From positions 3,300,001-3,332,000 of the forward strand of contig CP060262.1 of assembly GCA_022646745.1 (NCBI GenBank): a DNA stretch of 32,000 nucleotides. Direction: 5' to 3'. Source of the DNA: Planctomycetales bacterium (GTDB taxonomy: Bacteria > 4484-113 > JAFGCY01). Shown piece by piece: positions 2,850-22,300 of the stretch; position 1 is the stretch's first letter, and every line of letters starts with the position of its first letter. The notes under the pieces were generated by a model. The model was not told the DNA's origin. It did not search any database and saw only the letters and a program-made list of their open reading frames with translations. The translations under genes and the position numbers were made by a program.

Positions 2850-3418
2850 TTCTCATACTTGGAATAGAAGAGCTGGGTGGCATATGTATCATCCATGTTG
2901 TCTGTGACCTCGAATGGGTAGAAGAAGAGAAAAGGCTTGCCGACATCCTCATCGGGAACTGACAACTCAAGATATTCGTTACGGGTACTTAACAGGAAGA
3001 AACCCTTTTCTTCAGGTCGGAGCGTTACCAAGTTCTCAGTTTCCGTGTAACCCTTTATGGCTTCTGGGTCTATGAGTGTCCAATACGGAACCTGAAGACT
3101 CGTTGCCAATTCGATTGCTTCCTCTTTATCCTGGCACTCGATGACAATGTTGCGATACCTGCTGGTTGCTTCAGGTGCAGAAGTTATATAGAACTTCCCA
3201 TTGGAGCTGAGGCCAGCAGAGTCTTGTTTGGCAACTCTGAACTTCCTTGAATTCAGCTCTAGGATGTTGACACAGTTCGGGTCTGATTGATTTACCTTTG
3301 AAATGTTTGGGTCGTTAATGTCCTCATTCAACACGAAGGAGTTGTAGAACAGCATTGCTGTACCGACGACCAACCCAAAGCCAATAGCAAAAAGAAACCT
3401 ATCTCTTAAGGAAATCAT
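2846..3418 (-). CDS. N-terminally membrane-anchored hypothetical protein
   Basis: Track ORF 2846-3454. I prefer ATG 3418, which has GGAGG 5 nt upstream on the minus strand (acGGAGGcgagtATG). The N-terminus MISLRDRFLFAIGFGLVVGTAMLFY is a single TM anchor. Its stop overlaps the convergent 2649-2849 gene by 4 nt. Confidence 0.5.
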   Translation of the reverse strand: MISLRDRFLFAIGFGLVVGTAMLFYNSFVLNEDINDPNISKVNQSDPNCVNILELNSRKFRVAKQDSAGLSSNGKFYITSAPEATSRYRNIVIECQDKEEAIELATSLQVPYWTLIDPEAIKGYTETENLVTLRPEEKGFFLLSTRNEYLELSVPDEDVGKPFLFFYPFEVTDNMDDTYATQLFYSKYEN

Positions 3419-3657
3419 ACTCGCCTCCGTCAGGCATTCTAGCAGCTTGCCCACATCTCCACGGCACGGCTACCCTGACCAGCTGGCTACGAGCTATTTA
3501 TGGGCTCTGCGCTAGCGCTGGAAAATCTGCCGTGGATATGCCACCCGCCGGCTGACCGGCAGGCTTGGACAAGCTTCTGGTTTGATTGCTAGATATCAGA
3601 TTGTAGCCTTTTCATATCAAGCGAATTTGGTGAGAGAGCATTTAATGCGGCAGTAGC

Positions 3658-3686
3658 TTCCAATCTGCAAACAACTGTACTATCAT
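3658..3686 (+). promoter_or_regulatory. candidate sigma70-type promoter for the 3728 gene
   Basis: TTCCAA (3658-3663), a 17-nt spacer, then TATCAT (3681-3686), about 40 nt upstream of ATG 3728. Hexamer match only. Confidence 0.25.
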
Positions 3687-3727
3687 GTCTTCATCGTTAA
3701 GAAACTACACTTCACTAAGGATTCACG

Positions 3728-4846
3728 ATGGGATACGAGATTGATTATTTACCTGTAGGCAATTCGGAGAGCAAGCAACTTGGTGATGCAATTGCCATGC
3801 GCTTTTGGAATCCTGAGCGCACCGAACAGCTAGTAATAACAATTGATGGTGGAACACTTGAATCAGGTGCTGCGGTCGTCAAGCATGTTAAGGAGTTCTA
3901 TGAAACTGACACAGTTGACATAGCAATCCTAACCCATCCAGAGGCAGACCATGCTTCTGGCCTAAGGGAAATCATCAAAGGACTCAATGTTAAAAGAATT
4001 TTTGCCTTAGTGCCGTGGAATCACGCGGAGGAAATAATTGACCGCGTTAAACAAGCGGATGCACGGTGCACAGTAACCAGTTTGAAAGCGACATTGCGGG
4101 AGGCATATCCATGCTTTGCTGAGGTAGAAGACCTAGCTACAGAACGCGCTATACCGATTTACGAGAAATTTGGAAGCTCGACAAGATATGACCTTGGGGT
4201 GGGAACCAACATATGCTTCTTAGGACCGACGAGAGAGGAATACATTAACAAGTGGCTACCGGAGTTTAGCTCTCTGCCTCAGGCAGGAACTGCCGCAGTA
4301 ATGGCTCCCGTGGTCAAAGCAGTATCCCAAGCTTTCAGATGGATAGTGGAAACCTGGGACAAGGAGCTTCTACTTGATCCAGGACCGAATGAAGTCAGCA
4401 GCGTAAATAACTCTAGCCTTATCTTCACTCTTGAGCATGAAGACCGTAGGTTTCTGTTCTGCGGAGATGCTGGCGTTCCAGCTATTCAAAACGCAATTGA
4501 CCTCGGAATTGGATTGGGGATACCAGCCAATGGATACAACTTCTTCGATGTCCCTCATCATGGTAGTAGACGGAATTTGGGGCCAACAATTCTCAATCAG
4601 CTTATGGGTGTGCCCCGAACCGCAGCCAATCCCCCAAGTGAAGGTTCTGCGTTCATATCCGCTCCACCCAACGATCCTAAACACCCTTCCAAGCGAATAA
4701 CAAATGCTCTCAATCGACGCGCCCGTACCGTGATTTGTACACTTGGTTCTCCAAAGTGTCATCACTCAGACGATTACAATCCAAGAAACGGCTGGAGTCC
4801 TGCAACTCCAACACCGTATTTCGATGAAGTAGAAGAGTTTGATTAG
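3728..4846 (+). CDS. metallo-beta-lactamase-fold hydrolase, ComEC/Rec2-like subgroup
   Basis: 372 aa. Motifs seen: GDAIAM, ILTHPEADHASG (an HxExDH variant of HxHxDH), FCGDAG, and VPHHGSRRN typical of the ComEC C-terminal MBL domain. Confidence 0.8.
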   Translation: MGYEIDYLPVGNSESKQLGDAIAMRFWNPERTEQLVITIDGGTLESGAAVVKHVKEFYETDTVDIAILTHPEADHASGLREIIKGLNVKRIFALVPWNHAEEIIDRVKQADARCTVTSLKATLREAYPCFAEVEDLATERAIPIYEKFGSSTRYDLGVGTNICFLGPTREEYINKWLPEFSSLPQAGTAAVMAPVVKAVSQAFRWIVETWDKELLLDPGPNEVSSVNNSSLIFTLEHEDRRFLFCGDAGVPAIQNAIDLGIGLGIPANGYNFFDVPHHGSRRNLGPTILNQLMGVPRTAANPPSEGSAFISAPPNDPKHPSKRITNALNRRARTVICTLGSPKCHHSDDYNPRNGWSPATPTPYFDEVEEFD

Positions 4847-4876
4847 TATCTGGCTTTTCAGCCTGCCCACATTGTC

Positions 4877-5527
4877 TCATTTGCGTTCAGGAGCTAACTC
4901 TGCTTGGCTCACGGCTTCTATGACTAGGTATTCACCACGTTGCCTGAACCGATTCAATTGGATCAGTGCTAGTGATAGCACGATCACAGGTGCAACTAGG
5001 CTTGGCCATCCACCCCATGTGCGAACTGCTTCTACAATAGCAACGACCAAGCCAAGAATTAGCGCCATTAGTAGTGCTCTATTTAGTGCATACAGTCCGT
5101 TGAAGCGTTCACATTCTCCGAGCTTGCGACTGAGCTTGAAAGCCACCTTGATTGCTTCATCGTCATCGAAAGCCTTAACCTCTCCGTCGCTGGCTGCCAA
5201 TCCTTGTTTGGTGAGTATGCGACTCTTTGCCGACAACCAACGTTCCTTGCTCATGCCTGTGATGCCCTCTCTGATAAGCCTATCTGAAGGCTTGCCCCCA
5301 GCCAAGAAGTACAGCACTTTCTCGACATCGCCGGACGACACCGCTTGAACAAAGTGTCCTGCGATGAAACTTGCGACAATGAATGCCGTTGCGGCAAACG
5401 AACCCTTGCCAACAGTATCTGCGAAAGTGGGATAGGAGTTAGCGACGTAGTAGTAAGTAATTAGCACCACGACCGAGCCCGGCATTAAGTAAGCCAACAA
5501 ATCGTAGGTTGAAAACTTGCTGTCCAT
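4877..5527 (-). CDS. 4-TM membrane protein translationally coupled to hsdR, function unknown
   Basis: ATG 5527-5525 lies 1 nt after the hsdR stop (TAG 5531-5529), with GGAG 5 nt upstream inside the hsdR 3' end. The 216-aa product has two N-terminal and two C-terminal hydrophobic helices flanking a charged domain of about 80 aa. Confidence 0.6.
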   Translation of the reverse strand: MDSKFSTYDLLAYLMPGSVVVLITYYYVANSYPTFADTVGKGSFAATAFIVASFIAGHFVQAVSSGDVEKVLYFLAGGKPSDRLIREGITGMSKERWLSAKSRILTKQGLAASDGEVKAFDDDEAIKVAFKLSRKLGECERFNGLYALNRALLMALILGLVVAIVEAVRTWGGWPSLVAPVIVLSLALIQLNRFRQRGEYLVIEAVSQAELAPERK

Positions 5528-5528
5528 A

Positions 5529-8500
5529 CTAACTCCGGCTTTGATTAATTTCTGGCTGTCGCAGATCCTGGTAAACCCGCTCCATCAGGTACTTTCGAGC
5601 CAGCTTCTTGAACGCCTTGTCATTTAATAGTCGAGCTACGATATCTTGATTCTGCTCCTCGCGGTCAATAACCAGACCATCGAACGCTTTGTTGAATATG
5701 AATTCGAAGTTGTCAATTTCATTAGCTTGCGCCGCCTGCGCGATTGCTTCAACGGCCTTGGCCGATTCCTTGATCTGCTCGAAGAACAGTGCGTCGGCTG
5801 GCTTGAAGTCTGTACCGAAGCGGTCGTTCAGCTTTTCTAATAGGGATGATAGTTCAACCTTGTCTTCCTTGTCTATGGCTGTGCCGACCTCAGTAGGTGC
5901 AGGCAGCTCGCCAATTTCACCAGCGGTAAGCTCAATCTGTCCTGCGCTGATCTTCTGCATTCGCCAGTACTTGAGCGAGACTTCATCTTCAAAGTTGTAG
6001 CGAGGTCCACCGGACTGACGCGGGAGTTTGCTCACAAGTAACCGGATATAAGCGTACAGCTTCTCAAGATCTGAGTCCTCGTAAGGGATGATCTGAGCCA
6101 GGAATGCGTACAGGTTGCGATAGCTCGTCGCTAGGCTGCGGAACTCATCCTGCTTTTCCTCATCGAGCTGTTGGAATCGCCCAACCGCCTTATCAATAAT
6201 GGCATTGAGTTGTTGGTGCTCTTGGTTCGTTTGCTCAGCCTTTGGCTTGAAGAAGACTTTTGCGAACTCCTCGATCTCGCTCTTGTGGTAGACCTGAAAC
6301 GCGTCCAGCTTGTGCTGTAGCTCGTAAAGTTGATGCGGGTCTGCATCCTCAGTGATTGTTGTCGCTTCGTAGTAGGGCTGGAAGGACTGCTGAATCTCTT
6401 CCATCTCGTTCACGAAGTCGAGCACGAATGTGCTGTCCTTGCCCTCACGAACCCGGTTCAGGCGCGAAAGTGTTTGGACTGCCTGAATCCCGGAGAGGCG
6501 CTTGTCTACATACATCGTGTGAAGCAGCGGTTCATCAAAGCCGGTCTGGTACTTGTCCGCCACGATGAGAACTTGGTAATCGTTAGTAGCGAACTTGCGC
6601 GGCAGCTCTGTTTCCTTGATTCCAGCGTTCATCTCAACTTCGGTGTAACTCTTGCTCTCATCCAAGACTGAGCCGGAAAAAGCCACAAGCGCCCGGATGT
6701 CTTTATAGCCCTTGTCGGTGATGTACTTGTCGAATGCTCGCCGGTAACGCACCGCATGTAAACGGGAGCGCGTGACAACCATTGCTTTCGCGCGACCGCC
6801 GATCAGTTTCTTTGTATGATGGCGGAAGTGCTCAATGATGATCTCGGTCTTCTGTGAAATCTCATGCGGATGCAGGCTGACGAAACGCGCGAGCGCCGAA
6901 GCAGCCTTCTTCTTGACCACTTGCGGATCATCCTCGATAGCCTTGATGAGCTTGAAGTAGCGCTTGTAGGTCGTGTAGTTCTTGAGCACATCCAGAATGA
7001 AGCCTTCTTCAATGGCCTGTCTCATACTGTAGAGATGGAACGGGACTTCTTTGCCGTCAATGCCAGGTCTGCCGAAGAGCTTCAAGGTCTTATATTTGGG
7101 AGTAGCCGTGAACGCGAAGAAACTGAGGTTGGCTTGCTTCCCGCGCTCCTTAGCGGACTTCAGCACTTCATCTTCAATGTAGTCTTCTTCAGCTATAGCC
7201 TCTTCTTCCGCTGCCGCCTCTTCCAAATCTCTGGCCGCCAGAACCGCCTTCATCTTCTTTGCTCCCTCACCGGACTGCGAGCTATGGGCTTCATCCACGA
7301 TCAGCGCGTAGCGCCGCTTGGGAAGATCGGCCACTTTGTCCATCACAAACGGGAACTTCTGTAGGGTCGTGATAATGACGGGCACACCGCCCGTCAGAGC
7401 GTTGCTAAGCTGGGTGCTGTCCTTGTCTATCGGTTCGACAACGCCCTGCTTGTGCTCGAACTGGTAGATGGTCTGTTGCAACTGCTTATCCAGCACACGC
7501 CGATCCGTGACCACAATCACCGTGTCGAAGACGCGCTCATTGGCCACATTGTGAAGGCTTGCCAACCGATGCGCAAGCCAGCCAATCGTGTTGCTCTTGC
7601 CGCTTCCAGCGGAGTGCTGCACGAGGTAGTTATGCCCCGCACCCTCACTTGTAGCGGTATGAATAAGCTTGCGCACAGCGTCGAGCTGGTGGTACCGCGG
7701 GAAGATGAGCGTCTGAGTGATGATCTTTTCTTTGCCGCTCTTCCTCTCAGACTCTTGCAGGTGCATGAATTGGCCGAGGATATCGAGCCAGCTATCGCGC
7801 TGCCAAACTTCTTCCCAAAGATAGTGCGTCTTGTAATTGCATTCAATCGCTGGGTTGCCAGCGCCCATTCCGTCGCCCTTGTTGAACGGCAGGAAGTAAG
7901 TGCCTTTGTTCTTGAGCTGCGTGGTCATGAACACTTCATTCGGGTCAGCGGCGAAATGTACCATCGCCCGCACCGGCCCGCGATTGAACGAGAACAGCAG
8001 TTCGTTAGGGTCGCGGTCGTTCATGTACTGGTACTTGGCGTGCGTAGCGTTCTGGCCGGCGAAGTGGTTCTTCAGCTCCGCCGTCGCAACGGGAAGCCCA
8101 TTGAGGCTAATCAGCAGGTCAACGGAATTTTCATTCTTGAGGCTGTAATGAACCTGCCTTGTTACATGCAGCTTATTCTTGCCATACAGCTCTGCCAGCT
8201 CCGGGTTAAGCCCGCTCGCGGGGGCGAAGTAGGCCAGCTTAATCGGCTTGCCATAGACTTTGATTCCGTGCCGCAAAACGTCCAGCATTCCACGCGAAGC
8301 CAGCTCTTTGGTGAGAGCTTCTAAGATCACCTTGCGGAAGTCTGCCTTGACCTGGGATTGCAGTTTGCTCAAGATCGCCGCTTGGGTCGACTCTAGGAAC
8401 TCGAACAGGAAGTCCGGGAACAGCGCCAATTCACGGTCATAATCAGCGTCAGAGCCTTTGATATAGCCGCCCGCAGCCAGCAGGCTGGCCTCGATTGCGT

Positions 8501-8543
8501 CTTCAAAATTGATCTCTTTGTATTCTGCGTTCATCAGCGCCAT
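5529..8543 (-). CDS. hsdR: type I restriction enzyme R subunit
   Basis: 1004 aa. N-terminal PD-(D/E)xK-like motif (VDLLISLNGLPVATAELKN). Helicase motifs: QHSAGSGKS (I), IVDEAHSSQ (II, DEAH), FAFTATP (III), QTLSRLNR (VI). Confidence 0.95.
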   Translation of the reverse strand: MALMNAEYKEINFEDAIEASLLAAGGYIKGSDADYDRELALFPDFLFEFLESTQAAILSKLQSQVKADFRKVILEALTKELASRGMLDVLRHGIKVYGKPIKLAYFAPASGLNPELAELYGKNKLHVTRQVHYSLKNENSVDLLISLNGLPVATAELKNHFAGQNATHAKYQYMNDRDPNELLFSFNRGPVRAMVHFAADPNEVFMTTQLKNKGTYFLPFNKGDGMGAGNPAIECNYKTHYLWEEVWQRDSWLDILGQFMHLQESERKSGKEKIITQTLIFPRYHQLDAVRKLIHTATSEGAGHNYLVQHSAGSGKSNTIGWLAHRLASLHNVANERVFDTVIVVTDRRVLDKQLQQTIYQFEHKQGVVEPIDKDSTQLSNALTGGVPVIITTLQKFPFVMDKVADLPKRRYALIVDEAHSSQSGEGAKKMKAVLAARDLEEAAAEEEAIAEEDYIEDEVLKSAKERGKQANLSFFAFTATPKYKTLKLFGRPGIDGKEVPFHLYSMRQAIEEGFILDVLKNYTTYKRYFKLIKAIEDDPQVVKKKAASALARFVSLHPHEISQKTEIIIEHFRHHTKKLIGGRAKAMVVTRSRLHAVRYRRAFDKYITDKGYKDIRALVAFSGSVLDESKSYTEVEMNAGIKETELPRKFATNDYQVLIVADKYQTGFDEPLLHTMYVDKRLSGIQAVQTLSRLNRVREGKDSTFVLDFVNEMEEIQQSFQPYYEATTITEDADPHQLYELQHKLDAFQVYHKSEIEEFAKVFFKPKAEQTNQEHQQLNAIIDKAVGRFQQLDEEKQDEFRSLATSYRNLYAFLAQIIPYEDSDLEKLYAYIRLLVSKLPRQSGGPRYNFEDEVSLKYWRMQKISAGQIELTAGEIGELPAPTEVGTAIDKEDKVELSSLLEKLNDRFGTDFKPADALFFEQIKESAKAVEAIAQAAQANEIDNFEFIFNKAFDGLVIDREEQNQDIVARLLNDKAFKKLARKYLMERVYQDLRQPEINQSRS

Positions 8544-8565
8544 GCTTTCTCCAAGTGACGGCGCG

Positions 8566-9270
8566 CTATGCGCTTCCGTTCGTCTCGGCTGTTACATCTA
8601 TCTTGCCTGTTACGGCAGCCGTTATCAAGGCACGGCGATATTCATACAATCTGTTGAGCTGCTGCCCGACGAACCCTTCTAGCTTGTCGCTTCTCTTTGA
8701 TTGCCCAATGAGTACATCTATCACAGCTACGCGTTCATCTAGATAGTTAACAATGTCCAACTGTACTGATTCCGAGATGCTGGGTATCAGCAGTTCTGCT
8801 AGTTTCTCAGCAGTCAGGTGCCTAATTGTGGCTTTGTTGCAGACCACGTCGAACCATCCAGAAGCGCTAATTGCCTCTAAACAATAATATAAAAATCGTA
8901 TCGAGTGTCCGGACTTTGGCCTTACACGATGCAGCGAGTTTTGAATTATGCAGTCTTCAGGAGCTTCCTCGATAAATCCTGCGCGACCTACATCACCTCC
9001 CTCACACACCAAGAGATCACCTGGCCGCAGATTCCACTCATCAACGTCACGCCTTGAAGCCCACATCTCAGGCAAGTCACGTGTCCGTACCTTCCCCCAC
9101 GCCACGTGAAGGGCTTTAAGATAGGGCACTTGCTTGTCTATAGCCGTGCTAGGCTCCGGCTGTAGCATCTTTCCAAGTCTTACAACGTAAGCCGTCTTCA
9201 CACGACGAGTTTCCCAGCCAGTTGGCAGTTCTCCACCCCAAGGTAAGGACTTTGATGATTCACTTACCAT
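8566..9270 (-). CDS. hsdS: type I R-M specificity subunit, half-size (single TRD)
   Basis: 234 aa. It overlaps the hsdM stop by 7 nt and ends 22 nt before hsdR. It has one variable region plus one conserved C-terminal helix (LDIVNYLDERVAVIDVLIG...LYEYRRALITAAVTGKIDV), typical of HsdS conserved regions. Confidence 0.8.
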   Translation of the reverse strand: MVSESSKSLPWGGELPTGWETRRVKTAYVVRLGKMLQPEPSTAIDKQVPYLKALHVAWGKVRTRDLPEMWASRRDVDEWNLRPGDLLVCEGGDVGRAGFIEEAPEDCIIQNSLHRVRPKSGHSIRFLYYCLEAISASGWFDVVCNKATIRHLTAEKLAELLIPSISESVQLDIVNYLDERVAVIDVLIGQSKRSDKLEGFVGQQLNRLYEYRRALITAAVTGKIDVTAETNGSA

Positions 9271-11294
9271 CGCAACCCCCCGCCGACAGTTGAATGTACT
9301 CTCTCTTCAAGCGCTAATATCTCCGCTTTGATCTCCTCTAGCGGTCGCATAGGCTTGTACTCATAGAAGTGCTTTGCAAACGGAATCTCATAACCAACCT
9401 TGGTCTTTTCGTGATCAATCCACGCGTCTGGAACGTGAGGCAGGACTTCGCGTGCGAAGTACGCATCCACATCTTCCTTCAGCGGTATATTTTCAAAGTC
9501 GCGCAGTTCACTATCCGGCTCAGGTTTGCCCTTGCTGTCAGCACAGACAGCAGCTGTTTCATCGCGCTCGCAGAGGGCTGCAATTAGTCCCTTGCGAAGT
9601 GGGGTGGTGAGCTTTAGTTTCGCAGCCTTGAATGCCGCGTCAAAGTCCTTGGTGAACTCAGCCCGGTCTAACCAGAGCTTGTCACTCTGTATACCTCTAA
9701 GCACTGTGAGAATAGACTGTTGCATACGCTGGCCGGATTCGATCTCGGCCTGCGCCAGCGCGCCTTTTTTGCGCGACTTCGCCAGCCCTAAAAATGCAGT
9801 GCTGGCTTTAAGCACTTCGATCCGCTCAGCCTCTACTCTGAAGTTCAAGCGCAAAGGTCGCTCCACCGTTACGCGCCAATAACCGAAGTCATTGTTGTCG
9901 AAGACCTTACAGAACTTATCTTCTTTGATGTCCCCAAGCAGGATGTCCTCGAATGACCCGTAGATTTGGCCGATTTCCTGAATCTGGCTATCACTGATGT
10001 AGTTGCGCTTATTGCCAAGCGACTTCTTCATCTTCTTGAAGAGGCTAACTGCATTGACCAGTTGCACCTTGCCACGCCGTTCAGGACTCTTGCGGTTCGT
10101 GAGTACCCAGAAGTAAGTGTATATTCCAGTGTTGTAGAAGAGCTGGTCTGGCAGGGCAACGACGGCCTCAAGCCAATCGTTCTCAATAATCCACTTGCGA
10201 ATTTCACTTTCGCCAGAGCCAGCACTGCCGGTGAACAGCGGGCTACCGTTGAAAACAATCGCCAGCCGCGATCCGCCCTTCTCCGGCGACTTCATTTTGG
10301 ACAGCATATGCTGGAGGAATAGAAGCGAGCCATCATTGATGCGTGGTAGGCCAGCTCCAAAGCGTCCGTTCCACCCCTCATCCTCATACTCACCCTTAAC
10401 CTCTTTCTTGATCTTCTTCCACTCCACGCCGAAAGGTGGGTTGGACAGCATGTAGTCGAACTGCGAGTCAGGCAAGCCGTCCTGCGTGAAGCTATTGCCC
10501 CTCTTGATGTTCTCAGATTCGTGTCCCTTAATAATCATGTCCGAGACGCAGACAGCCCAGGACTCATCATTCAGCTCTTGGCCGAACACTTTCAGCGTTG
10601 CGCCGGGGTTCATCCTTCGAACATGTTCTTCAGCGATGGAGAGCATTCCGCCTGTGCCACAAGCAGGGTCGTAAAGTGTGCGCACCGTGCCTGGCTTAAC
10701 AAGCTGGTCGCCGTCGCCGTTGAAGAGCAAGTCCACCATGAGGCGGATAACTTCGCGCGGCGTGAAGTGCTCTCCCGCTGTCTCGTTCGATAGCTCGGAG
10801 AACTTGCGGATCAACTCTTCATAGATGTAGCCCATCTCTTCATTACTGACCTTATCGGGATGAAGGTCAGTCTCAGCGAAGCGCCGCACCACTTGGAATA
10901 GAAGGTTGTGCTCGTCAAGCTGCTGAATCTGCTCATCGAACTTGAAGCGCTCGATAATCTCTCGCGCCCGCTCAGAGAAGCCGTTGATGTAGAGGCGCAG
11001 ATTGGCGGCTAGATTGTTTGGATCGGCGAGCAATTTATCGAAGTCGAACGGGCTGATGTTGTAGAACTCGAATTTCCACTTGCTTCTAACGAACGGAAGG
11101 AAGTCAGAGTACTTGCCCTTGCGCTTATCGTACTCTTCCAACATCGCCGGTTTGTATGGCGCGAGCACGCCATCCAACCGCCGGAGCACGGTCAGCGGCA
11201 AGACTACCTTGCCGTAGTCCGCGCGCTTGTATTCACCCCGGAGAAGCTCCGCGATATCCCATATAAGCTGTACCTTTTCCCTGAAATGAATCAT
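9264..11294 (-). CDS. hsdM: type I R-M N6-adenine DNA methyltransferase subunit
   Basis: 676 aa. AdoMet motif YDPACGTGGML, catalytic LSNPPFGVEW (NPPF), an HsdM-N-like N-terminus, and a long C-terminal extension ending VGYEIPFAKHFYEYKPMRPLEEI. Confidence 0.95.
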   Translation of the reverse strand: MIHFREKVQLIWDIAELLRGEYKRADYGKVVLPLTVLRRLDGVLAPYKPAMLEEYDKRKGKYSDFLPFVRSKWKFEFYNISPFDFDKLLADPNNLAANLRLYINGFSERAREIIERFKFDEQIQQLDEHNLLFQVVRRFAETDLHPDKVSNEEMGYIYEELIRKFSELSNETAGEHFTPREVIRLMVDLLFNGDGDQLVKPGTVRTLYDPACGTGGMLSIAEEHVRRMNPGATLKVFGQELNDESWAVCVSDMIIKGHESENIKRGNSFTQDGLPDSQFDYMLSNPPFGVEWKKIKKEVKGEYEDEGWNGRFGAGLPRINDGSLLFLQHMLSKMKSPEKGGSRLAIVFNGSPLFTGSAGSGESEIRKWIIENDWLEAVVALPDQLFYNTGIYTYFWVLTNRKSPERRGKVQLVNAVSLFKKMKKSLGNKRNYISDSQIQEIGQIYGSFEDILLGDIKEDKFCKVFDNNDFGYWRVTVERPLRLNFRVEAERIEVLKASTAFLGLAKSRKKGALAQAEIESGQRMQQSILTVLRGIQSDKLWLDRAEFTKDFDAAFKAAKLKLTTPLRKGLIAALCERDETAAVCADSKGKPEPDSELRDFENIPLKEDVDAYFAREVLPHVPDAWIDHEKTKVGYEIPFAKHFYEYKPMRPLEEIKAEILALEERVHSTVGGGLRW

Positions 11295-11696: not shown

Positions 11697-12653
11697 TCAC
11701 CTCAGCGCTTCGAGAAGATCAGTCCGCTCGGCATTCGCATATGAACTGACAGGGCTAGTCTCTTCATTGCGCAGGTGAAACAGATCAATTCCGCGAGTCC
11801 AGATGGACTCCAGCACCGTGCCGGGAGCGATGGAATCAGCGGTTGTGAACCAGAATCCGCGCTTGCCTCCAGCTGCCACTGTCTTTTGCGCAATGGACAT
11901 AAGCCTCTTCTCGCTTGGAGTAACTGCTAGCAGTATAGCCCATTGAGAGCGCCAGTCAGCTAGGAGCTTATTGCTCTGGATGTAGTCCCGGTAGACTGCT
12001 ACTTTTTCTGTCCACTGCTTTGTGGACATGGTTCCTCTGTCTACTTCCACGAAGAAAACCCCGTGCTGACTTTCCGCTGGCTGTAGCAAGACAATGGCAT
12101 CGGGGATGACAGACACATCCTGCCGGTGCCCGCGCTTGTCCATTACTTGCACAGTTAGCCGGTGCTTCTTGGGATCACCTCGCAGAACTCTGTAGTCCGC
12201 CAGCTTGCCGGAGTCCTTGGCGGCTTCAAAATCATTGCGGAAGGTGATAAGGATGTCATTAACCGCCAGCAAGTGCTGGACGTGGGTTGGTTGGACATCG
12301 TTGATGTAACGTTTCCATTTAACATCTGACCTTTCGATGTTGTCAGTTTCAGCGATGAGCTTAGCCCCCTTCTCCGTCATTGCGTAAATCATGGAGTCCC
12401 GCGAGGAGGAGACAGGGAGCTTCAACCGCTTCAGGTAGCCATGCTGAAACAACAGCCGGAGCCGGTTGGTCAGGTTCTTCTCACTGGCATCGGGAAACAA
12501 CCACCAGAACTGGTGGGTGCTCAGGAAACGGTAAACGAGGACTACTCTGACTAGTTCCACGTCCCTGGCGGTAAGGTCAAAGCGGGGCGGGCTCTTTGTC
12601 CGCGTAGTTCTAGGTGTCCTCTTTTGGTCAGTCTTTGGTTTACTAGGAGACAT
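11697..12653 (-). CDS. replication-relaxation (Replic_Relax, PF13814-like) family protein
   Basis: 318 aa. N-terminal wHTH-like pattern LTARDVELVRVVLVYRFLSTHQ...RLRLLFQHGYLKR, then HLLAVNDILITF and IPDAIVLL...FFVEVDRGT, as I remember for this family. Confidence 0.6.
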   Translation of the reverse strand: MSPSKPKTDQKRTPRTTRTKSPPRFDLTARDVELVRVVLVYRFLSTHQFWWLFPDASEKNLTNRLRLLFQHGYLKRLKLPVSSSRDSMIYAMTEKGAKLIAETDNIERSDVKWKRYINDVQPTHVQHLLAVNDILITFRNDFEAAKDSGKLADYRVLRGDPKKHRLTVQVMDKRGHRQDVSVIPDAIVLLQPAESQHGVFFVEVDRGTMSTKQWTEKVAVYRDYIQSNKLLADWRSQWAILLAVTPSEKRLMSIAQKTVAAGGKRGFWFTTADSIAPGTVLESIWTRGIDLFHLRNEETSPVSSYANAERTDLLEALR

Positions 12654-12790
12654 ATGACTCTATTCTACAAGCCCAAGACATTCGCTCTCAAATGATTCCT
12701 GTAAATGCGACGCTTATTTCAATGCCTTCGGTTTAAATTTCATTATATTCAAGTTATACTCCACCACTAGTGTTTTACTTGGAGGTCTTC

Positions 12791-12934
12791 ATGAATGAAC
12801 ATGACCTATTAGTTAGGCCATTCGGTATCAACTTTGCGATTCCGCAGGACGTTGACCAGATCAACTTCAGCACCTCAATGAGGAATGATGATACTGGCAC
12901 CTATCGCCGGGACACGGACGACCACGATACATAA
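12791..12934 (+). CDS. candidate graspetide (omega-ester peptide) precursor, 47 aa
   Basis: Not in the track (under 60 aa). GGAGG (12781-12785) lies 5 nt before ATG 12791, and TAA 12932-12934 lies 13 nt before the ATP-grasp ATG. Translation: MNEHDLLVRPFGINFAIPQDVDQINFSTSMRNDDTGTYRRDTDDHDT, a leader-like N-half and a Thr/Ser + Asp-rich C-terminus. Confidence 0.5.
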   Translation: MNEHDLLVRPFGINFAIPQDVDQINFSTSMRNDDTGTYRRDTDDHDT

Positions 12935-12947
12935 GCGATAACTAGCG

Positions 12948-13943
12948 ATGTCGATCCCAAGGACGGACATAGACCTACTAGTACTGGGAACTGATGTTGA
13001 TCCTCATGTTCAATCGGTACTAGCCCAGTTGCCGGATACCATCAATGTCATGCGATTTGATATTGATAAGTATCCGGTATCTTTTTCTTCAACATACAGT
13101 GTCAATCAGGATGCAGAGAGCTTAATTTTCCAGAATAAGCATCTGTATCAATGTGTAAATAATCACTCTATTGTTTGGTTTAGACGAATCGGAGCGCCTG
13201 GAGTGAGCAAAGAAATTAGAGATCGCTCCTATAGAAAATTTGCTAATGCTGAAACTGAGGCATTCATACTTGGATTGACATCCTTGTTATCAAGTTCTGT
13301 TTGGATAAATCCCTATCTTTCAACAAAATATGCGAATAGTAAATTATTCCAATTACGTAACGCTAGAAATATTGGCCTAAGAATTCCCGCAACATTAGTA
13401 ACTAACTCGCCTGATGAAGTTCGCACTTTTGCCAGTGTCTATCCCAAAATAATATACAAAACATTAAGCTCCCCATCTTTAGAGCAAAACTCTGGTAGAT
13501 CGTTAATATTTTCACACTTGATTTCAGATTCAGATCACGTATTGTTTGATCAAGTTAAATATGCACCTTGCATGTTCCAACAGTACATTGAGAAGGATTA
13601 TGAACTTCGGATTACTTTCGTGGGTGGAAATTTTTACAGTGTGAAAATCTTTTCTCAGGATAGCTCAGATACTAAAATTGACTGGCGAGCAGGTGACTGG
13701 AATCATCATCGATATGAGACAACAAACTTGCCAGAGGCAGTATGCCAACAGCTTTCTTCTTTCATGCAAGTGTTGAATTTGCAATTTGGTGCAATTGACA
13801 TGATAGTAACTCCTAATGGGGAATATGTCTTTCTAGAAGTAAATCCACATGGAGCTTGGCTTTGGCTTGAGCAAGCTACCGACCTTTGTATTTCACTAGC
13901 AATCAGCAATTATATTCAGAGGCTCTGCTCGTTCCGTACATAA
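12948..13943 (+). CDS. microviridin-type (MdnC/MvdD-like) ATP-grasp macrocyclase
   Basis: 331 aa. Motifs matching my memory of MdnC: VWFRR, ANSKLFQLRNARNIGLRIPATLVTNSPDEVRTFA, ELRITFVGG, DWRAG, FGAIDMIVTPNGEYVFLEVNPHGAWLWLE. Confidence 0.8.
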   Translation: MSIPRTDIDLLVLGTDVDPHVQSVLAQLPDTINVMRFDIDKYPVSFSSTYSVNQDAESLIFQNKHLYQCVNNHSIVWFRRIGAPGVSKEIRDRSYRKFANAETEAFILGLTSLLSSSVWINPYLSTKYANSKLFQLRNARNIGLRIPATLVTNSPDEVRTFASVYPKIIYKTLSSPSLEQNSGRSLIFSHLISDSDHVLFDQVKYAPCMFQQYIEKDYELRITFVGGNFYSVKIFSQDSSDTKIDWRAGDWNHHRYETTNLPEAVCQQLSSFMQVLNLQFGAIDMIVTPNGEYVFLEVNPHGAWLWLEQATDLCISLAISNYIQRLCSFRT

Positions 13944-14008
13944 ATATCTAAATTGATGTCTTCGTTATTGTCAGTTAGTCTTAAGACAATAGCAATTAAG
14001 ACATTTAT

Positions 14009-14548
14009 GTGAATTCTAACTCTCACAGCCAATCTGAAGTATCTCGGATTAGCATCACTATTATTGAGCTGGCAAACAAAGATCAAGCAATGCGCACCAA
14101 AGCAGTCCAAGATGCGAATCAGTGGGATTCTCGACTTGACATTGTTAACACACACAAATTCAAAAAGCTGCTAAACCAATATGGTTGGCCAAAATTATCA
14201 CTTTTTAGTGTGGAAGTTTGTCGCTCTGCATGGCTGTTGGCTCAGCATGCAGACGAAGATATAAAATTTCAAAAGCAATGTCTTTCAATGATGAAGTCAT
14301 TACCCCAGAAGGAAGTCTTACTCTGGACAACTGCCATGCTAGAAGATCGAATATTAGTATCTGAGGGCAAGGAACAAATTTTTGGAAGCCAGTTTCATAA
14401 AGATTCTAAAACAGGAATGCTTGTTCCTTGGCCAATAGCAAATCCTGAAGAATTGGATTTACGGAGAGCCAAAGTAGGATTGAATGCTTTTGCTGACGAA
14501 TTGCAAATTATACAGAAATTTGCAAAAGCTAAGCCAGCCCGTCCGTAG
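14009..14548 (+). CDS. hypothetical protein, DUF6624-like
   Basis: 179 aa from GTG 14009 (alternative ATG 14090). It resembles the pattern ..GWP......G...AWLL.QHAD.D..FQ..CL..M (here YGWPKLSLFSVEVCRSAWLLAQHADEDIKFQKQCLSMM). Low GC, like the graspetide pair. The family call is from memory only. Confidence 0.45.
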   Translation: MNSNSHSQSEVSRISITIIELANKDQAMRTKAVQDANQWDSRLDIVNTHKFKKLLNQYGWPKLSLFSVEVCRSAWLLAQHADEDIKFQKQCLSMMKSLPQKEVLLWTTAMLEDRILVSEGKEQIFGSQFHKDSKTGMLVPWPIANPEELDLRRAKVGLNAFADELQIIQKFAKAKPARP

Positions 14549-14610
14549 ACCGGCTGACCTGCTTGCAGTAATCCTATGGGAACGGATAGGCGTGGAAAGT
14601 GTGCCTGTCC

Positions 14611-15105
14611 TCATCCCTCATTGATTTTCGCTTCCAGCTCCTTGATTCGCATCGTAGCTTGCTTCTGTGACATCTTGGAGATTACGGAGTAATCCGGTTC
14701 TTCTCCCAGTTGCCGGTGGAGATAGCCCATGTAGCGGAGCTGTTTGTGTGTCAGCTCACGGCCTGGGCTTCCTTTGACTTCATCCTCGCCGGCAGTTTCC
14801 CGCCGGCCAGGCTTTGGCTTGGAGTCCGGTTCAACCACTTCGAACTTCTTCTTGCTCATGTATGGCCGACCGTTGATGTTGGTAACATCAACGGCATCGA
14901 GGAAGCTCTGAACCCTGCGGTTCAGGTTGGCTTCCACTTCATTGAAGCACTCCATCGGAGTATCCTCCGTGACCTCAAAGTCATCTGAAACGACTTTGGC
15001 CAGGTAGAGCAGCATCGGATTTACATCCTCAGCTGCCATCCCGAACATGTCTGGTCTGTGAAGGATGCCGAAGCGGATAGCATGCTTGAGTTCTTCATGC
15101 TGCAC
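14611..15105 (-). CDS. hypothetical protein (last gene of the DUF2958 operon)
   Basis: 164 aa. GTG 15105 lies 9 nt after GGAGG and overlaps the DUF2958 gene by 11 nt. The C-terminal helix-hairpin-like segment LTHKQLRYMGYLHRQLGEEPDYSVISKMSQKQATMRIKELE resembles DUF3072-type tails (weak). Confidence 0.5.
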   Translation of the reverse strand: MQHEELKHAIRFGILHRPDMFGMAAEDVNPMLLYLAKVVSDDFEVTEDTPMECFNEVEANLNRRVQSFLDAVDVTNINGRPYMSKKKFEVVEPDSKPKPGRRETAGEDEVKGSPGRELTHKQLRYMGYLHRQLGEEPDYSVISKMSQKQATMRIKELEAKINEG

Positions 15106-15442
15106 GTTCTTTTTCCTCCATCAGCTTGTCCAGAGTGATCGGTTCCCAGTACAGGTCACGCTCGACTGGCAGGCCGAGCTTGCCCCGCACCTTCTCCAGC
15201 TCAGAGAGCCAGAAGTAACCGAGTTCGACTTCGAGACCATCCACCAGTCCGAAGAACTGCACGTCACCGGACTCTTTGTCCTGGCTGGCAGACACCGCAT
15301 ACCAAGTCCAGTTGGCATCTGGTGTAAACCACTTGGCCAGAACAAGTTCCTCGTCCTTACGCAGTTCGCGACCGGGGCCGGTCGGATGATACGGGTCCTG
15401 CGCCAGTAGTTTGCGCAGGAGATCTTTAGGCAGCAGCTTCAT
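15095..15442 (-). CDS. DUF2958 family protein
   Basis: 115 aa. AAGGAGG lies 9 nt upstream. KWFTPDANWTWYAVS...FFGLVDGLEVELGYFWLSELEKVRGKLGLPVERDLYWEP matches the DUF2958 signature common on conjugative elements. Confidence 0.7.
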   Translation of the reverse strand: MKLLPKDLLRKLLAQDPYHPTGPGRELRKDEELVLAKWFTPDANWTWYAVSASQDKESGDVQFFGLVDGLEVELGYFWLSELEKVRGKLGLPVERDLYWEPITLDKLMEEKERAA

Positions 15443-17361: not shown

Positions 17362-18504
17362 TTATATCAATCGAGATTGCGGGACCGATAATCCCAAGTT
17401 CTCCTCGAACATGAACACATCATCAATCAATGTTGACCAACCAAAACTAATCCGCAGAGTCTCTTCCGAAGTCTTGCTATCTATCCCCATTGCTTCCAAC
17501 ACATGACTGACCTTGTTGTTGCAACCCGTACAAGCGCTTCCTAGTCCAACCGAGAATCCACTGCGATCCAGCTCCTTCTGCTTCCTGCGTGCTTTGATGC
17601 CAGGTATTGCAAAGCTGCAAATGTGAGGTGCACGATTTGCATCTATGCCGTGAATGACAATTTGCTGGTCTGATGAGAGGAGGGATGATTCGAATCCTGA
17701 TCGGATGGAATGTAAAAAGTCTGATTTCTCCAAATTCTCTTCTGCTAGCTCGAGAGCTGCAATCATGCCGGCGATTCCGGCAAGATTTTCCGTGCCTGCT
17801 CGGCAACCATGTTCCTGTGGTCCACCACAGATGAGGGATGGCAGGTTATGACCGCGCTGGATGAGCAGGCCGATTCCACGCGGTCCACCGAACTTATGCG
17901 CAGTGCAGGTCAGGAAGTCAATGTCAGGATTGCGTAATGTTTCACTGAAGCCGTTGCCAACGGACTGGACGGCATCACAGTGAACCAGGACTCCATGCTC
18001 ACGGCAGATTTGGGATATCTCCCCTACCGGCTGAACAACTCCGGTCTCATTGTTGACAGCCATCACGGAGACCAGATCAGGTCTATCAGATGTAATTAGC
18101 TTTTCCAGGAATTCCAGCTGAACCACACCGTTGCCATCCACCGGAATGATGGTCTGTCTGCCACCAAGTTGGGTCAGCCGCTCCGCTGCGAGCAACCCAG
18201 CCTTATGCTCCACGGCAGAAATGGCAACATGCACCGGCTTCTTCAGCAACAGAAGGCTACCGATGATCACATGGGAGTTGCCTTCACTGGCTCCACTATT
18301 GAACACAACGTCATTGCCCTTGCAGGCAAAGAATGTCGCAGCCCGGTCATGGAACTGTTCCAGTAGTCTGGCAGCCTTGAAGCCTTCAGCATGCTGGCTG
18401 GAGGGATTGCCCATCAGTGCGGAATCCTCCAGGAATGGCAACATCGCTTCCCTGGCTTCCTGACGCAGGGGCGTGGTGGCAGCGTGATCGAGGTAGATGC
18501 GCAT
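17362..18504 (-). CDS. class V aminotransferase, NifS/IscS-type cysteine desulfurase
   Basis: 380 aa. Starts MRIYLDHAATTP. PLP-lysine context TAHKFGGPRGIG. Catalytic Cys loop GLGSACTG followed by SHVLEAMG, and ETLRISFG near the C-terminus. Confidence 0.9.
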   Translation of the reverse strand: MRIYLDHAATTPLRQEAREAMLPFLEDSALMGNPSSQHAEGFKAARLLEQFHDRAATFFACKGNDVVFNSGASEGNSHVIIGSLLLLKKPVHVAISAVEHKAGLLAAERLTQLGGRQTIIPVDGNGVVQLEFLEKLITSDRPDLVSVMAVNNETGVVQPVGEISQICREHGVLVHCDAVQSVGNGFSETLRNPDIDFLTCTAHKFGGPRGIGLLIQRGHNLPSLICGGPQEHGCRAGTENLAGIAGMIAALELAEENLEKSDFLHSIRSGFESSLLSSDQQIVIHGIDANRAPHICSFAIPGIKARRKQKELDRSGFSVGLGSACTGCNNKVSHVLEAMGIDSKTSEETLRISFGWSTLIDDVFMFEENLGLSVPQSRLI

Positions 18505-18506
18505 AT

Positions 18507-19073
18507 TTACTCACTCGAACCAAACGGATCTGCGGGCTGTGGTACTCCCTGCCCCATGGATGGTCCAATATCCGGTGGGCCAGCTGGTCCCTGCATCCTG
18601 GGTGCGCCGTGATATGGCAGTCTAGGTTGCAGATCCATCAGTGGGTCGCGGTCCTGCTGCTTGCTGGGGTCCATGGCATCCGCTACCCTCATCGGATCAA
18701 CTACGTAACTCACCGAGAACTCTAGCATCTCGCCATATGCCGGACGCGGCCACTTGTCCTCATCTCCATCCAGTCCAGGTGGGATCAGGGGCTGGTCGAT
18801 GTCTTCCAGCTGCTTGAAGACCTGCCTGAGTCCAGCACTCCACAGTTCGTTGAATGCCTTACCCGTCACCTGCCGGTAGTGCGCTGCCAGCACGCGCTTG
18901 AGCGGAGCTTTTCCCTTGCGAAAGCCTGGCACGTCCTTGTCCTTGCGCACGTCGGTTGCCGCCTTATTGAGGGCAAAGTCCACGTCATACGCCCCGACCC
19001 GCAGGTGCAGAATCCGGCTGGACACCCCAAGCCGCTCCAATCTGAACTGCAGTTCGTTGATCTGCATAGCCAC
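18507..19073 (-). CDS. stand-alone trigger-factor N-terminal-domain-like protein with Pro/Gly-rich tail
   Basis: 188 aa. It contains the TF ribosome-binding signature GFRKGKAP in a context alignable to the E. coli Tig N-domain (..VPGFRKGKAPLKRVLAAHYRQV..; ..MLEFSVSYVVDP). The C-terminal ~60 aa are low-complexity P/G/Q. The stop is 2 nt before the desulfurase ATG. The start is GTG 19073 or ATG 19067. Confidence 0.55.
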   Translation of the reverse strand: MAMQINELQFRLERLGVSSRILHLRVGAYDVDFALNKAATDVRKDKDVPGFRKGKAPLKRVLAAHYRQVTGKAFNELWSAGLRQVFKQLEDIDQPLIPPGLDGDEDKWPRPAYGEMLEFSVSYVVDPMRVADAMDPSKQQDRDPLMDLQPRLPYHGAPRMQGPAGPPDIGPSMGQGVPQPADPFGSSE

Positions 19074-19302: not shown

Positions 19303-22300
19303 ATGGCTAATTCGGGGATTGGAATCAAGTCATGGAGGAACTACCACTCCAGCTCACTTTTTTCGGGACAGCGTGCTGACAGGAATACACGGATCTCGAT
19401 TGACACCTATTCCGGCAACCTCAATGTCACTGCCATCGACTGGAACGTTGCTGCCCGCCTGCCTATCTCCATCTCCCGTTCATACAACCATCAGGACAAC
19501 ACCGCCAACCTCGACCGGCCCTTCGGACCTGGCTGGAGCTGGTCATATGACCAGAACCTGTATGGCAGCCTTTCCGGTGGCAGTGGGACTGTCACTTGGA
19601 AAGACGGCTCAGGCAATGAGTGGGAGTTTTCATATGCTTCCACATCCGGTGGCAAGGATCACTACACCTCTCCGGCTGGCATGCACAAGTACGTACTGTC
19701 CCGCGATACTACCAGCGGCGACTTCACGATCAAGATGCTGACCATGGAATGGTCCTTCGTCGTGAACAGCACAGACAGCCTCGCCCGCCTGATGTACATC
19801 CGTGACGCCTTTGGCAATGGCCAGGAGATAGACCGCTCCCTGGATGGCAACTCCGAACCGGAGATGACCATCAACAACATCCAGATCCGTTACCACAACG
19901 GCTCCAGCTGGACCACGCAGGATACCATCACGCCGACTTATGGCAGTGGCCTGATCACCAGGCTGGATGTCAAGTACTGGAACGAGTCCGGATCGACCAC
20001 CAGCACTGCATACAAGATCTACTACTCATACACGAGCATTGATTCCGCAGACCGATTGACCAAGGTAGAGCCCAAGGATTCGTCCGATACGGCCCTCAAC
20101 ATGGAAGTGGAGTACGACTACAACTCCTCCGACGGGCTGGAGATGACGAAGATCTACGACACGGAAGGCAGCAAAGCGGGAACGCCATACTACTGGAGTG
20201 TCAGCTACACCAGTGACAAGGTGACCAGCCTGGTGTTCCCGATTGAAAGTGGAACCACAGGCACCATAGGATTCGACTACTCCCCGACTGCCCCTACCGG
20301 CTGGCCTGGTAGTGGCGCGCTGACCGAAGTGACGGACGCCCGCAGCAACTCCTGGTGGTATGACCATGACACCAGTGGTAGGGTGACATATCAGGCGGAC
20401 CCACTGTGGACTGACACCACACATGAAAGTGAGATCATCACTACCTGGAATTCTGACAATCAGGTAACTGAAGTTGACACCCCCAAGCCCAACAACCTGT
20501 CCGGCCGAATCTCATCCAAGAATTTCTACAACTCGGACAAAAATCTAGAAGTAACACAGGACCAGTACGGCTTCTTGAGATTCTACAAATACGGCAGCCG
20601 CGCCAGTTACGCCACATCCGGCACCGATGCCACCGTTGACGACATCATCGGGATCTTCACCACGATGCCCAACCAGAAAGCATATGCCGACGGGGATTAC
20701 ACATCCAGTGAGACCACCGCACCGTCCAGCCCAGATATTGGTGATGTGAGCTGGGACAACACCAATGGCTACTGGTACTACACGGATGCGGCTGGTTCTC
20801 CCAACACCATCAAGCTGGTTCGGACTGTCAAAGACCCGACCTTTGCCACAGGTACCGGCCAGCTGACTGAGATGTTGTCCTGTTCGCCGGAGAATTTCGG
20901 CGACGGCGGAAACCCGCCAACCTATTCGTTGACCTCATCCTCCGCCTGCAGCAAGCAGGAGTACAATTCCACAACTGGTGACCTGTCCAAGAGCTACACT
21001 CCCCGCCAGTTCCAGGATTCCAGCCTCAAATGGACTGCATTTACGTTTGACCAGCGGTACGGCGTAATGACGGAACAGGAGAATGCGGACAGTCTGGCTG
21101 CTACCGCCAACAAGAAAACCAAGTACACATACAACGACACCCGGACAAAGCAGACAAAGGTGGAGTTGCCGGAAGACAACACGAATCAATGGACTGTGAC
21201 TGTCTATGATGACCGTGAGTTCATTGTCGGAACTCAGAAGCCGGACATCCAGAGCTGGAGTGTCAACCCGCAGGTAGATGTACTGGAGTACGACTACAAT
21301 GGCAACCTGGAGAAGGTCTACCAGGCGGACCCAGTTGCAACCGGCACCAGATGGGATGGAAATACAGCCAATGGCTACTACCACCTGAACACCTTCTACT
21401 ATGACCGCATTAACCGGCAGATCCAGAGCGATGTCCGTGTGGACTGGACTCAGACGGCTTCCGTGGATACTCTGTCAACGTACTACCTCTTTGACGCCAA
21501 CGGCAACCTTGAGCGCGTCAAGGGACCGCAGTACGATGACGGCGGAACTGATTACTACAGCTATACCTTCAGGACATACGACGAGTTGAACCGTGCCGAC
21601 AAGAGCTACCTGACGGAAGCCAGCACCAACTCCAACCTGACCTCACCAAGCGGTGCATATTCCGTGAACACTTACAGTGTCGGCGGTAACGTGGTGAATG
21701 TGACAGATCCCCGCGGTAATGCAACAATTCTGCTGAGTGACTTCCGCGGAGCTGGAGTACAGACCAGCAGGAACTACACGGGTCCCAGCGGCAGTGCCAC
21801 ACAGACCACAAAGCAGCATTTCGGAGCCAATGGCCAGCTGTACTGGAGCCAGAATGGTGAGGGATACAAGATGTACCCCCAGTATGATGATGACAGCCGC
21901 CGGGTATATAACCGGCGCGGTTCTGACACAGGAGACACAGACGAAATTGCATACGATGCCAACAGCAACCAGCTGTACTACTACACCTACCAGGATGTCG
22001 ATGACAGCAAGATCTACCGGGCAAGAAATAAGTACGACTTGATGGATCGGATGGTCAACTCGGGTCGGGAGCAATACACGGGTGGAAGCTGGCAGAACTG
22101 GAACGAGAACACTGCGGATACCACCTTCAACTACAACGGCTGGGTGATCAGGACATACGACAAGGTCAACTCCAGCAAGTATACGGAATCCGTCTATGAC
22201 AACTGGGGCCAGACCACCAAGGTCAAGGCCCCGGAAGTCGCCAACCCGTCCGGGATGGGCACCATCGTATATGAGACTGAAAACACATATGACGTGCTGG

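Follow-up and report, generated by a model that had tools for sequence, protein, structure and literature searches.

Gene content and composition of the locus

The window, i.e., the whole stretch of DNA analyzed here, comprises 32,000 nucleotides of a Planctomycetales metagenome-assembled genome (GenBank assembly GCA_022646745.1, contig CP060262.1, positions 3,300,001 to 3,332,000 of the forward strand), and our subject is a low-GC cassette within it that encodes a 47-aa peptide, a 331-aa ATP-grasp ligase and a 179-aa DUF6624 protein (Table 1). Graspetide ATP-grasp synthetases join the side chains of Thr/Ser or Lys to those of Asp/Glu by way of an activated acyl phosphate, and an earlier note on this DNA had proposed that the peptide and the ligase are a graspetide-type precursor and its synthetase. 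Our results agree with that pairing and extend it. The locus holds a genuine set of genes for making a ribosomal peptide and represents an uncharacterized but conserved branch of the graspetide class. We consider it likely that the three genes together form a horizontally acquired graspetide cassette, made up of the 47-aa precursor, one ATP-grasp synthetase and the DUF6624 protein, and the ATP-grasp enzyme probably knots the peptide by means of side-chain ester bonds.

The open reading frame (ORF) of the peptide (MNEHDLLVRPFGINFAIPQDVDQINFSTSMRNDDTGTYRRDTDDHDT) is absent from the source record, where the cassette neighbors are annotated as UNM07819.1 and UNM07820.1. As the earlier note had described, the ORF is preceded by a strong Shine-Dalgarno (SD) sequence and its stop codon lies 13 nt before the ATG of the ligase gene; the SD sequence is GGAGG, 5 nt upstream of the ATG of the ORF. 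The ligase motifs quoted there (VWFRR, ELRITFVGG, DWR and FGAIDMIVTPNGEYVFLEVNP) were likewise all found. The peptide contains neither Lys nor Cys, and its last 21 residues include the seven Ser/Thr that had been counted, together with six Asp rather than the seven claimed. The DUF6624 gene starts 65 nt 3' of the ligase gene, within the common low-GC cassette.

The NCBI models of both annotated genes are shorter than ours, at 297 aa for the ligase (UNM07819.1) and 152 aa for the DUF6624 protein (UNM07820.1). Since ligase residues 8-34 are conserved in 22 homologues, and since D25 and R29 of the DUF6624 protein are conserved upstream of the 152-aa start, we take the 331-aa and 179-aa starts to be correct and the NCBI models to be 5'-truncated. 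The GC content of the cassette is 39.8%, compared to 52.9% and 54.4% in its flanks, and that of third codon positions (GC3) is 0.33-0.34 in the cassette and 0.63-0.65 in the flanks. The low-GC islet of the earlier note is therefore real, although it spans three genes and is less extreme overall than the ~30% GC that the note had counted in one line; its lowest 60-nt line has 25% GC.

Table 1. Features of the window discussed in the text (positions are those of the window; position 1 is its first letter).
Feature	Position	Strand	Evidence or remark
Type I restriction-modification (R-M) genes, complete operon (R, S, M)	5529-11294	-	adjoining Replic_Relax
Replic_Relax (replication-relaxation) gene, left backbone flank	11697-12653	-	PF13814 2.9e-22; phrog_9381 'replication initiation by nicking'; syntenic with L003 8513-9460
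Low-GC three-gene cassette (precursor, ligase, DUF6624), between two mobile-element backbone genes	12654-14610	+	composition, synteny
SD sequence GGAGG	12781-12785	+	read from sequence
Precursor gene, 47 aa + stop	12791-12934	+	ORF call; unannotated by NCBI
Leader recognition motif PFGINF, residues 10-15	12818-12835	+	family conservation; predicted ligase-binding role
Core region STSMRNDDTGTYRRDTDDHDT, residues 27-47	12869-12931	+	right-aligned conservation
14-residue C-terminal core motif D-T-x-T-Y-R-x-D-T-[DE]-D-x-D-T	12890-12931	+	gap-free family alignment
Graspetide synthetase (ATP-grasp ligase), 331 aa	12948-13943	+	Pfam, NCBIfam, PDB matches
DUF6624 protein, 179 aa	14009-14548	+	PF20329 9.3e-15
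164-aa gene, right backbone flank	14611-15105	-	flank 14611-15442 syntenic with L003 3742-4645
DUF2958 gene, right backbone flank	15095-15442	-	PF11171 6.1e-13; syntenic as above
Second low-GC gene (37% GC), 291 aa	15872-16747	+	only a weak, sub-threshold DUF4760 match
Class V aminotransferase, then Trigger_N protein	17362-19073	-	
RHS protein, 2186 aa, with low-GC end	19303-25863	+	
Type IV coupling protein	27014-28654	-	

The ATP-grasp ligase and its clade

Profile searches placed the ligase with the maturases of graspetides. The MvdD pre-ATP-grasp domain (PF21068) was matched at 6.3e-10 (39.6 bits, cut-off 27), the MvdC model TIGR04185 at 3.6e-71 (239.9 bits, curated cut-off 425), the MvdD model TIGR04184 at 2.8e-62 (210.8 bits, curated cut-off 475), and the SAV_5884 maturase subfamily TIGR04187 at 5.8e-62, again under the curated cut-off. 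No NCBIfam maturase model is matched at or above its curated cut-off, and the enzyme is a divergent member. Matches to the models of RimK-like and glutathione synthase-like enzymes were far weaker: rimK_fam gave 4.7e-6 (26.2 bits, below its cut-off of 143.4), the glutathione synthase (GshB) model 6.5e-7 (28.4 bits, below its cut-off of 272) and GSH-S_ATP 3.3e-5. Considering this difference (1e-62 to 1e-71 for the two Mvd models and the related subfamily vs. 1e-6 to 1e-7 for RimK/GshB), we assign the 331-aa enzyme to the graspetide synthetases and not to the RimK/GshB enzymes. Clustering with the latter, which the earlier note had named as an outcome that would count against its proposal, was not seen.

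Comparison with solved structures points the same way. The best PDB matches were 5ig8 (1.1e-47), then 7m4s, 5ig9 (2.8e-39) and 7mgv, so that the nearest solved relatives are 5ig8, AMdnB, 5ig9 and CdnC, with 5ig8 and 5ig9 being deposited as 'ATP grasp ligase'; PsnB was a far weaker relative (3.2e-9). The ligase is ~35% identical to the microviridin enzymes, and the ATP-grasp residues invariant among 22 homologues include E297-x-N299 and D245-W-R247. A scan of PHROGs returned generic ATP-grasp and nicking-replication matches only, the ligase matching phrog_2599, 'ribosomal protein S6 glutaminyl transferase' (1.4e-14).

In a neighbor-joining tree of 151 ligases (100 bootstraps), all ligases accompanied by a precursor of the kind described below fell into one clade of 19 leaves (bootstrap 99/100), and every ligase in that clade has such a precursor. 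Hosts of this ligase family include Planctomycetales, a cyanobacterium and a Thermoanaerobaculia metagenome-assembled genome.

The precursor peptide family

Conservation of the small ORF beside orthologous ligases, which the earlier note had put forward as a check, was found: 20 distinct homologous peptides were recovered, each directly upstream of a clade ligase and on the same strand. The ligases with an adjoining peptide are 56% (L002), 50% (L003-6), 47% (L007, from the cyanobacterium Floridaenema), 43% (L087) and 40% (L008, Thermoanaerobaculia) identical to that of the window, with others down to ~35%. An exhaustive phmmer search over 1.8 billion representatives yielded three further distinct peptides, its remaining match being the L003 precursor, and an identical copy of the 47-aa peptide is called in ENA/Logan assemblies. 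What seemed to be a close orthologue at 91% identity (L001) was rejected as independent evidence, since its DNA is that of the window (99.9%) apart from two assembly indels. Judged by this conservation, the 47-aa peptide is a genuine graspetide precursor.

We aligned the cores of 17 distinct precursors from their C-terminal ends (those of L102, L104 and L106 were found later), and at least the last 14 residues aligned without gaps. Counting back from the C-terminus, position -14 is acidic, positions -13 and -11 are Thr/Ser, -6 is Thr, -4 is acidic and -2 is Asp in all 17 sequences, whereas a Tyr/Trp at -10 and an acid at -5 are each present in 16/17 (Gln replaces the acid in L092) and the terminal Thr at -1 in 15/17. 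Thirteen sequences have both an Arg at -9 and an acid at -7 (12905-12913 in the window) and the other four have neither, i.e., the two co-occur without exception, and the L102, L104 and L106 precursors also lack both. This pattern suggests that the residue at -7 takes part in a salt bridge, or is otherwise required as one of a pair, and is not an ester acceptor. Lys cannot be counted among the conserved donors, since relatives have K, R, S, A or G at position -8.

In the leader half of the peptide, the segment PFGINF aligns with variants such as PFG[IV]xF, PFAVQF, PLLARW, PFVARW and LFAARF in its relatives, in keeping with the suggestion in the earlier note that this half resembles the ligase-binding helix of microviridins. 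It also conforms to the Phhx(1,2)h or PFFARFL-type leader motif that has been tied to ligase activation (PMC8939145). The core, which had been called unfamiliar, remained so: no Pfam or NCBIfam precursor model matched the peptide, and a search of the PMC13097080 and PMC8939145 supplements for the core and leader strings of the family gave no relevant match, which, as coverage of these files was partial, is weak evidence of absence. In the searchable literature, then, this ligase clade with its leader and core was not found, and it is distinct.

The DUF6624 protein

The earlier note had described a minimal two-gene locus. This description did not hold, given the DUF6624 gene immediately downstream and its retention across the family. 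The 179-aa protein matches PF20329 with 55 bits (cut-off 27). With a single query sequence, about half of the family loci showed a DUF6624 homologue next to the ligase; with a 75-sequence profile, a DUF6624-like gene was seen to adjoin the ligase in 14/17. The divergent proteins among these retain QH, DR and Q-x-YGTQ motifs. Pairwise distances of ligases and DUF6624 proteins correlate (r = 0.49, Mantel p = 2e-4, 29 loci). We take the DUF6624 protein to be a functional partner of the pair, which might assist or tailor the product as a helper or an enzyme, or else serve in self-protection.

A highly confident AlphaFold2 model made with the 75-sequence alignment (predicted local distance difference test 94.9, predicted template modeling score 0.89) has seven helices and a small hairpin. 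A fold search with this model against the PDB and BFVD (viral predicted structures) gave nothing below E = 0.1, the best TM-scores being ~0.4, to designed helical repeats, and a profile search against PDB sequences returned only a designed repeat protein (E = 0.005). The family proteins, as read from their sequences, begin directly at the helical domain and have no signal peptide. The protein would be cytoplasmic and mostly helical, with a fold that has no solved relative. Residues G59, Q79, H80, D113, Q123 and R153 are invariant and W60, P61 and R114 nearly so. The protein carries a conserved Gln-His / Asp-Arg / Gln-x-x-Gly-Thr-Gln patch, and Q79-H80, D113-R114 and Q123 look like parts of a binding or active site. 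Some database members carry additional Pfam domains (PF06689 in P0123; PF00293, NUDIX, in P0185). On the metagenomic contig L161, three DUF6624 paralogues (79-651, 2220-2834 and 3322-3900) surround one ATP-grasp ligase.

An association of this family with graspetides has been reported before. DUF6624 was found in 24%, 64%, 103% and 82% of graspetide groups 18, 20, 23 and 42, respectively (Carter et al., 2026; PMC13097080). By its motifs, the family can be equated with the 'cluster 23 family', whose alignment shows GWP, QH, DR and YGTQF (Makarova et al., 2022; PMC8939145). Every branch 2 locus encodes the 'cluster 23' protein, as do many of branch 1; its family ranks among the three commonest that are associated with graspetides, and the authors, noting a conserved His and Arg, proposed that it is an enzyme (PMC8939145). 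A full-text literature search found no further paper naming DUF6624. Since the association is already present in both surveys (PMC8939145; PMC13097080), the three-gene architecture itself is not new.

Predicted crosslinking of the peptide

Established graspetide synthetase chemistry suggests how the cassette might operate. The ligase would bind the leader through its PFGINF segment, activate side chains of core Asp/Glu as acyl phosphates in an ATP-dependent step, and couple the activated acids to the hydroxyls of Thr/Ser, which would yield a multiply omega-ester-bridged, lactam-free peptide. Ester-only crosslinking is plausible since the cassette has a single ATP-grasp gene and the family has no conserved Lys. 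The likely participants are the positions that the family conserves: T-13, T-11 and T-6 would be the donors, and D-14, D-4 and D-2, together with the acid at -5 (16/17), the acceptors, for a total of two or three rings, or possibly up to four. Because the spacing is i/i+2 on both sides (T-x-T and D-x-D), our preferred guess is a nested hairpin ladder: D-2 would close a ring with T-13, D-4 one with T-11, and T-6 would belong to a third. D-7 would more likely pair non-covalently with R-9 than serve as an acceptor. A strict microviridin-like ring register, with T-13 joined to D-7, was down-weighted, since D-7 vanishes together with R-9 while T-13 is kept. The cassette encodes no leader peptidase and no exporter; consequently, either host functions would mature and release the product or the product would act inside the cell.

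Relation to described graspetide systems

The architecture of the locus equals that of graspetide group 42, which consists of a synthetase and DUF6624 only and occurs mostly in bacterial members of the candidate phyla radiation (CPR; Carter et al., 2026, PMC13097080). Both consist of a precursor, one synthetase and DUF6624 (82% co-occurrence in group 42), with neither transporter nor protease, and in the short group 42 precursor a hydrophobic leader motif is likewise followed by a C-terminal, Thr/Asp-rich core with a D-x-D-like end. The representative group 42 precursor nevertheless differs from that of the window, having the leader PLILDRL and the core FTTHGTPNDPDSGGTD. CPR ligases with an adjoining DUF6624 gene (e.g., L012, L105, L108 and L110) are among the next-nearest relatives of the window ligase, and ligases of CPR genomes are 32-37% identical to it (tblastn E ~1e-51 to 1e-58), but they fall outside its 99/100-bootstrap clade. 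The locus also resembles branches 1 and 2 of Makarova et al. (2022; PMC8939145), in which a Phhx(1,2)h leader and Thr/Asp cores likewise come with the 'cluster 23' protein. Branch 1 cores follow a less strict signature, TxxxTx(6-10)Dx(1-4)D, than the 14-residue core of the window family. Lipoprotein signal peptides are present on many 'cluster 23' proteins, which were described as extracellular (PMC8939145), whereas none of the DUF6624 proteins of the window family has a signal peptide.

The microviridin pathway (MdnA with MdnB/MdnC; group 1) provides the closest solved ligases, 5ig8 and 5ig9, and shares a leader of the PFFARFL type with the window peptide. Its core, which we take to be T-x-K-Y-P-S-D-x-[DE]-[DE], partly overlays T-x-T-Y-R-x-D-T-[DE]-D of the window peptide. 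However, the cassette has one ligase instead of two, and its peptide no Lys, hence no lactam, and no P-S-D; the cassette lacks a GNAT or ABC transporter gene and has DUF6624 and a conserved extra x-D-T at the C-terminus. The MvdC/MvdD equivalog scores, the core and the number of ligases all speak against a microviridin cluster, an identity that we therefore rejected.

Graspetide clusters have also been described as cargo of a variable hot spot in integrative and conjugative elements (ICEs) of Porphyromonas gingivalis, where the precursor was similarly missed by standard gene callers (bioRxiv 10.64898/2026.08.04.741601). Those clusters pair a grasp-with-SPASM system with type I secretion, whereas the cassette has no SPASM enzyme and no exporter, and they belong to another phylum and another ligase branch.

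The cassette as cargo of a mobile element

The cassette is cargo of an ICE-like (conjugative or mobilizable) element, and its foreign composition together with this mobile context points to horizontal acquisition. In locus L003, the backbone is shared with the window (RHS, Trigger_N, DUF2958 and Replic_Relax), and the cassette (4740-6648) occupies the site equivalent to 12654-14610 of the window while being inverted relative to the backbone. Two direct repeats of 268 nt, 97% identical (4472-4739 and 6649-6916), bracket exactly the three cassette genes of L003 and so delimit them as one unit. Each repeat contains the 3' end of a backbone gene, and the second copy supplies a borrowed C-terminal tail to the L003 DUF6624 protein. 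No flanking repeat was found around the cassette in the window. A TIR-domain gene adjoins the cassette in L003, and other family loci adjoin large serine recombinases, an ISL3 transposase, an RHS protein and a STAND NTPase. No exporter was present in the family loci examined for neighbors. The cassette has no close relative on sequenced plasmids (the best was 36% identical) or on viral contigs (one partial, weak match), and PADLOC-DB gave no match at E <= 0.1 for the peptide, the ligase, the DUF6624 protein or the Replic_Relax protein.

Elsewhere in the window, the 291-aa gene in the second low-GC islet may be another cargo gene of the element. The Trigger_N protein adjoins the RHS gene both here and in L003 (2183-2860), with a class V aminotransferase added in the window. 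The C-terminal end of the RHS protein has ~38% GC and is followed by a 261-aa ORF of similarly low GC with no family match (19303-26639, + strand); together they resemble a swapped toxin tip with its immunity gene. Scans of the window with Rfam gave no match, and a tRNA gene scan found none.

Alternative explanations

Several observations weigh against the interpretation as a three-gene graspetide cassette or against its details. Promoter-like and terminator-like sites occurred at chance level, and the ligase misses the curated cut-off of every NCBIfam maturase model. The crosslinks, ring number and topology are predictions. Several acid positions are not invariant (-7 varies, and -5 is Gln in L092), and a microviridin-like register, T-x-[K/T]-Y-x-x-D-x-E-D, would fit most sequences too, leaving the ladder as one option. 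As for the third gene, its orientation to the ligase is not fixed (downstream and co-directional, convergent, or upstream), no DUF6624 gene lies within the ~2-6 kb flanks of the ligase in L007, L087 and L102 (3/17 family loci), and in all three unrelated genomes sampled, Luteimonas abyssi among them, DUF6624 occurs with no ATP-grasp gene within 4 kb. Because of these absences and solitary occurrences, DUF6624 is not indispensable to the ligase, nor is it exclusive to graspetides. The same observations speak for a functional unit of precursor and ligase only, as proposed in the earlier note, with DUF6624 being an unrelated neighbor that travels by linkage, and most characterized graspetide ligases do work without a partner (PMC13097080). 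We nonetheless regard this explanation as quite improbable, since a DUF6624-like gene persists at 14/17 family loci despite ligase divergence to ~35% identity and rearranged orientation, the distances of the two proteins correlate, and the L003 repeats enclose all three genes. Published data argue against it as well, with a DUF6624 co-occurrence of 82-103% in groups 42 and 23 (PMC13097080) and a 'cluster 23' protein in all branch 2 and many branch 1 loci (PMC8939145). More drastically, the 47-aa ORF could be a chance ORF beside a RimK/GshB-like enzyme with some other substrate, as might be supposed from the weak matches of the ligase to GSH-S_ATP, RimK, glutathione synthase and phrog_2599 and from the lack of an NCBI annotation. 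Yet the maturase models score ~60 orders of magnitude better than those of RimK/GshB, the SD sequence is strong and at the right spacing, and 20 distinct peptides with a common gap-free core and leader motif lie upstream of clade ligases on the same strand; these conservation data effectively refute a chance ORF, to which we assign almost no likelihood.

A further explanation accepts the three genes as a unit and concerns what they do. The cassette could be an intracellular conflict module of the mobile element, serving in defence, addiction or counter-defence, instead of the source of a secreted natural product; the peptide would then work intracellularly (e.g., by inhibiting a protease), and DUF6624 would be its antidote or an enzyme that it controls. 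The loci of the precursor family have no exporter or leader peptidase, their DUF6624 proteins lack signal peptides, and the cassette sits in a variable cargo spot of an ICE-like backbone, among neighbors that include type I R-M genes, RHS toxins, a TIR protein, a STAND NTPase, serine recombinases and an ISL3 transposase; the three paralogues around one ligase in L161 would also fit. Proximity to conflict genes is weak evidence by itself, however, and the setting differs in L007, near hetR, and in L087, which adjoins a long ORF read, without a family search, as succinyl-CoA synthetase. Moreover, none of the three proteins has a PADLOC match, no close relative was found on phage contigs or plasmids, and exporters and peptidases of ribosomally made and post-translationally modified peptides are often encoded elsewhere (PMC8939145). 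We consider such a conflict module unlikely. Still more speculative, and in our view rather doubtful, is a fuller version in which the trio is a self-contained, transporter-less cassette exchanged at cargo hot spots of mobile elements as an intracellular conflict system, the ester-knotted peptide being the effector or inhibitor and DUF6624, with its unsolved fold and conserved His/Asp/Arg/Gln site, a new graspetide-acting enzyme (e.g., a ring-opening esterase), a maturation factor or an immunity protein. A horizontally acquired graspetide cassette with DUF6624 as a probable partner remains our preferred interpretation.

Significance

The family offers a gap-free core of only 14 residues with three conserved Thr/Ser as putative donors, three conserved Asp/Glu as putative acceptors and a co-varying Arg/acid pair, and a small, all-ester scaffold of this kind would be easy to express and map. 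The cassette is also a compact three-gene test bed for DUF6624 in a form without a signal peptide. Two surveys, from 2022 and 2026, flag DUF6624 among the commonest unexplained companions of graspetide synthetases, and since the confident model has no solved match, the protein may represent a new fold, so that solving its structure or finding its activity would close a genuine gap. The mobility of the cassette is a more modest addition: it is cargo of a conjugative-type element, and such peptide cassettes are exchanged between phyla. The general picture of graspetide biology stays unchanged unless a function of DUF6624 or an intracellular role of the product is demonstrated.

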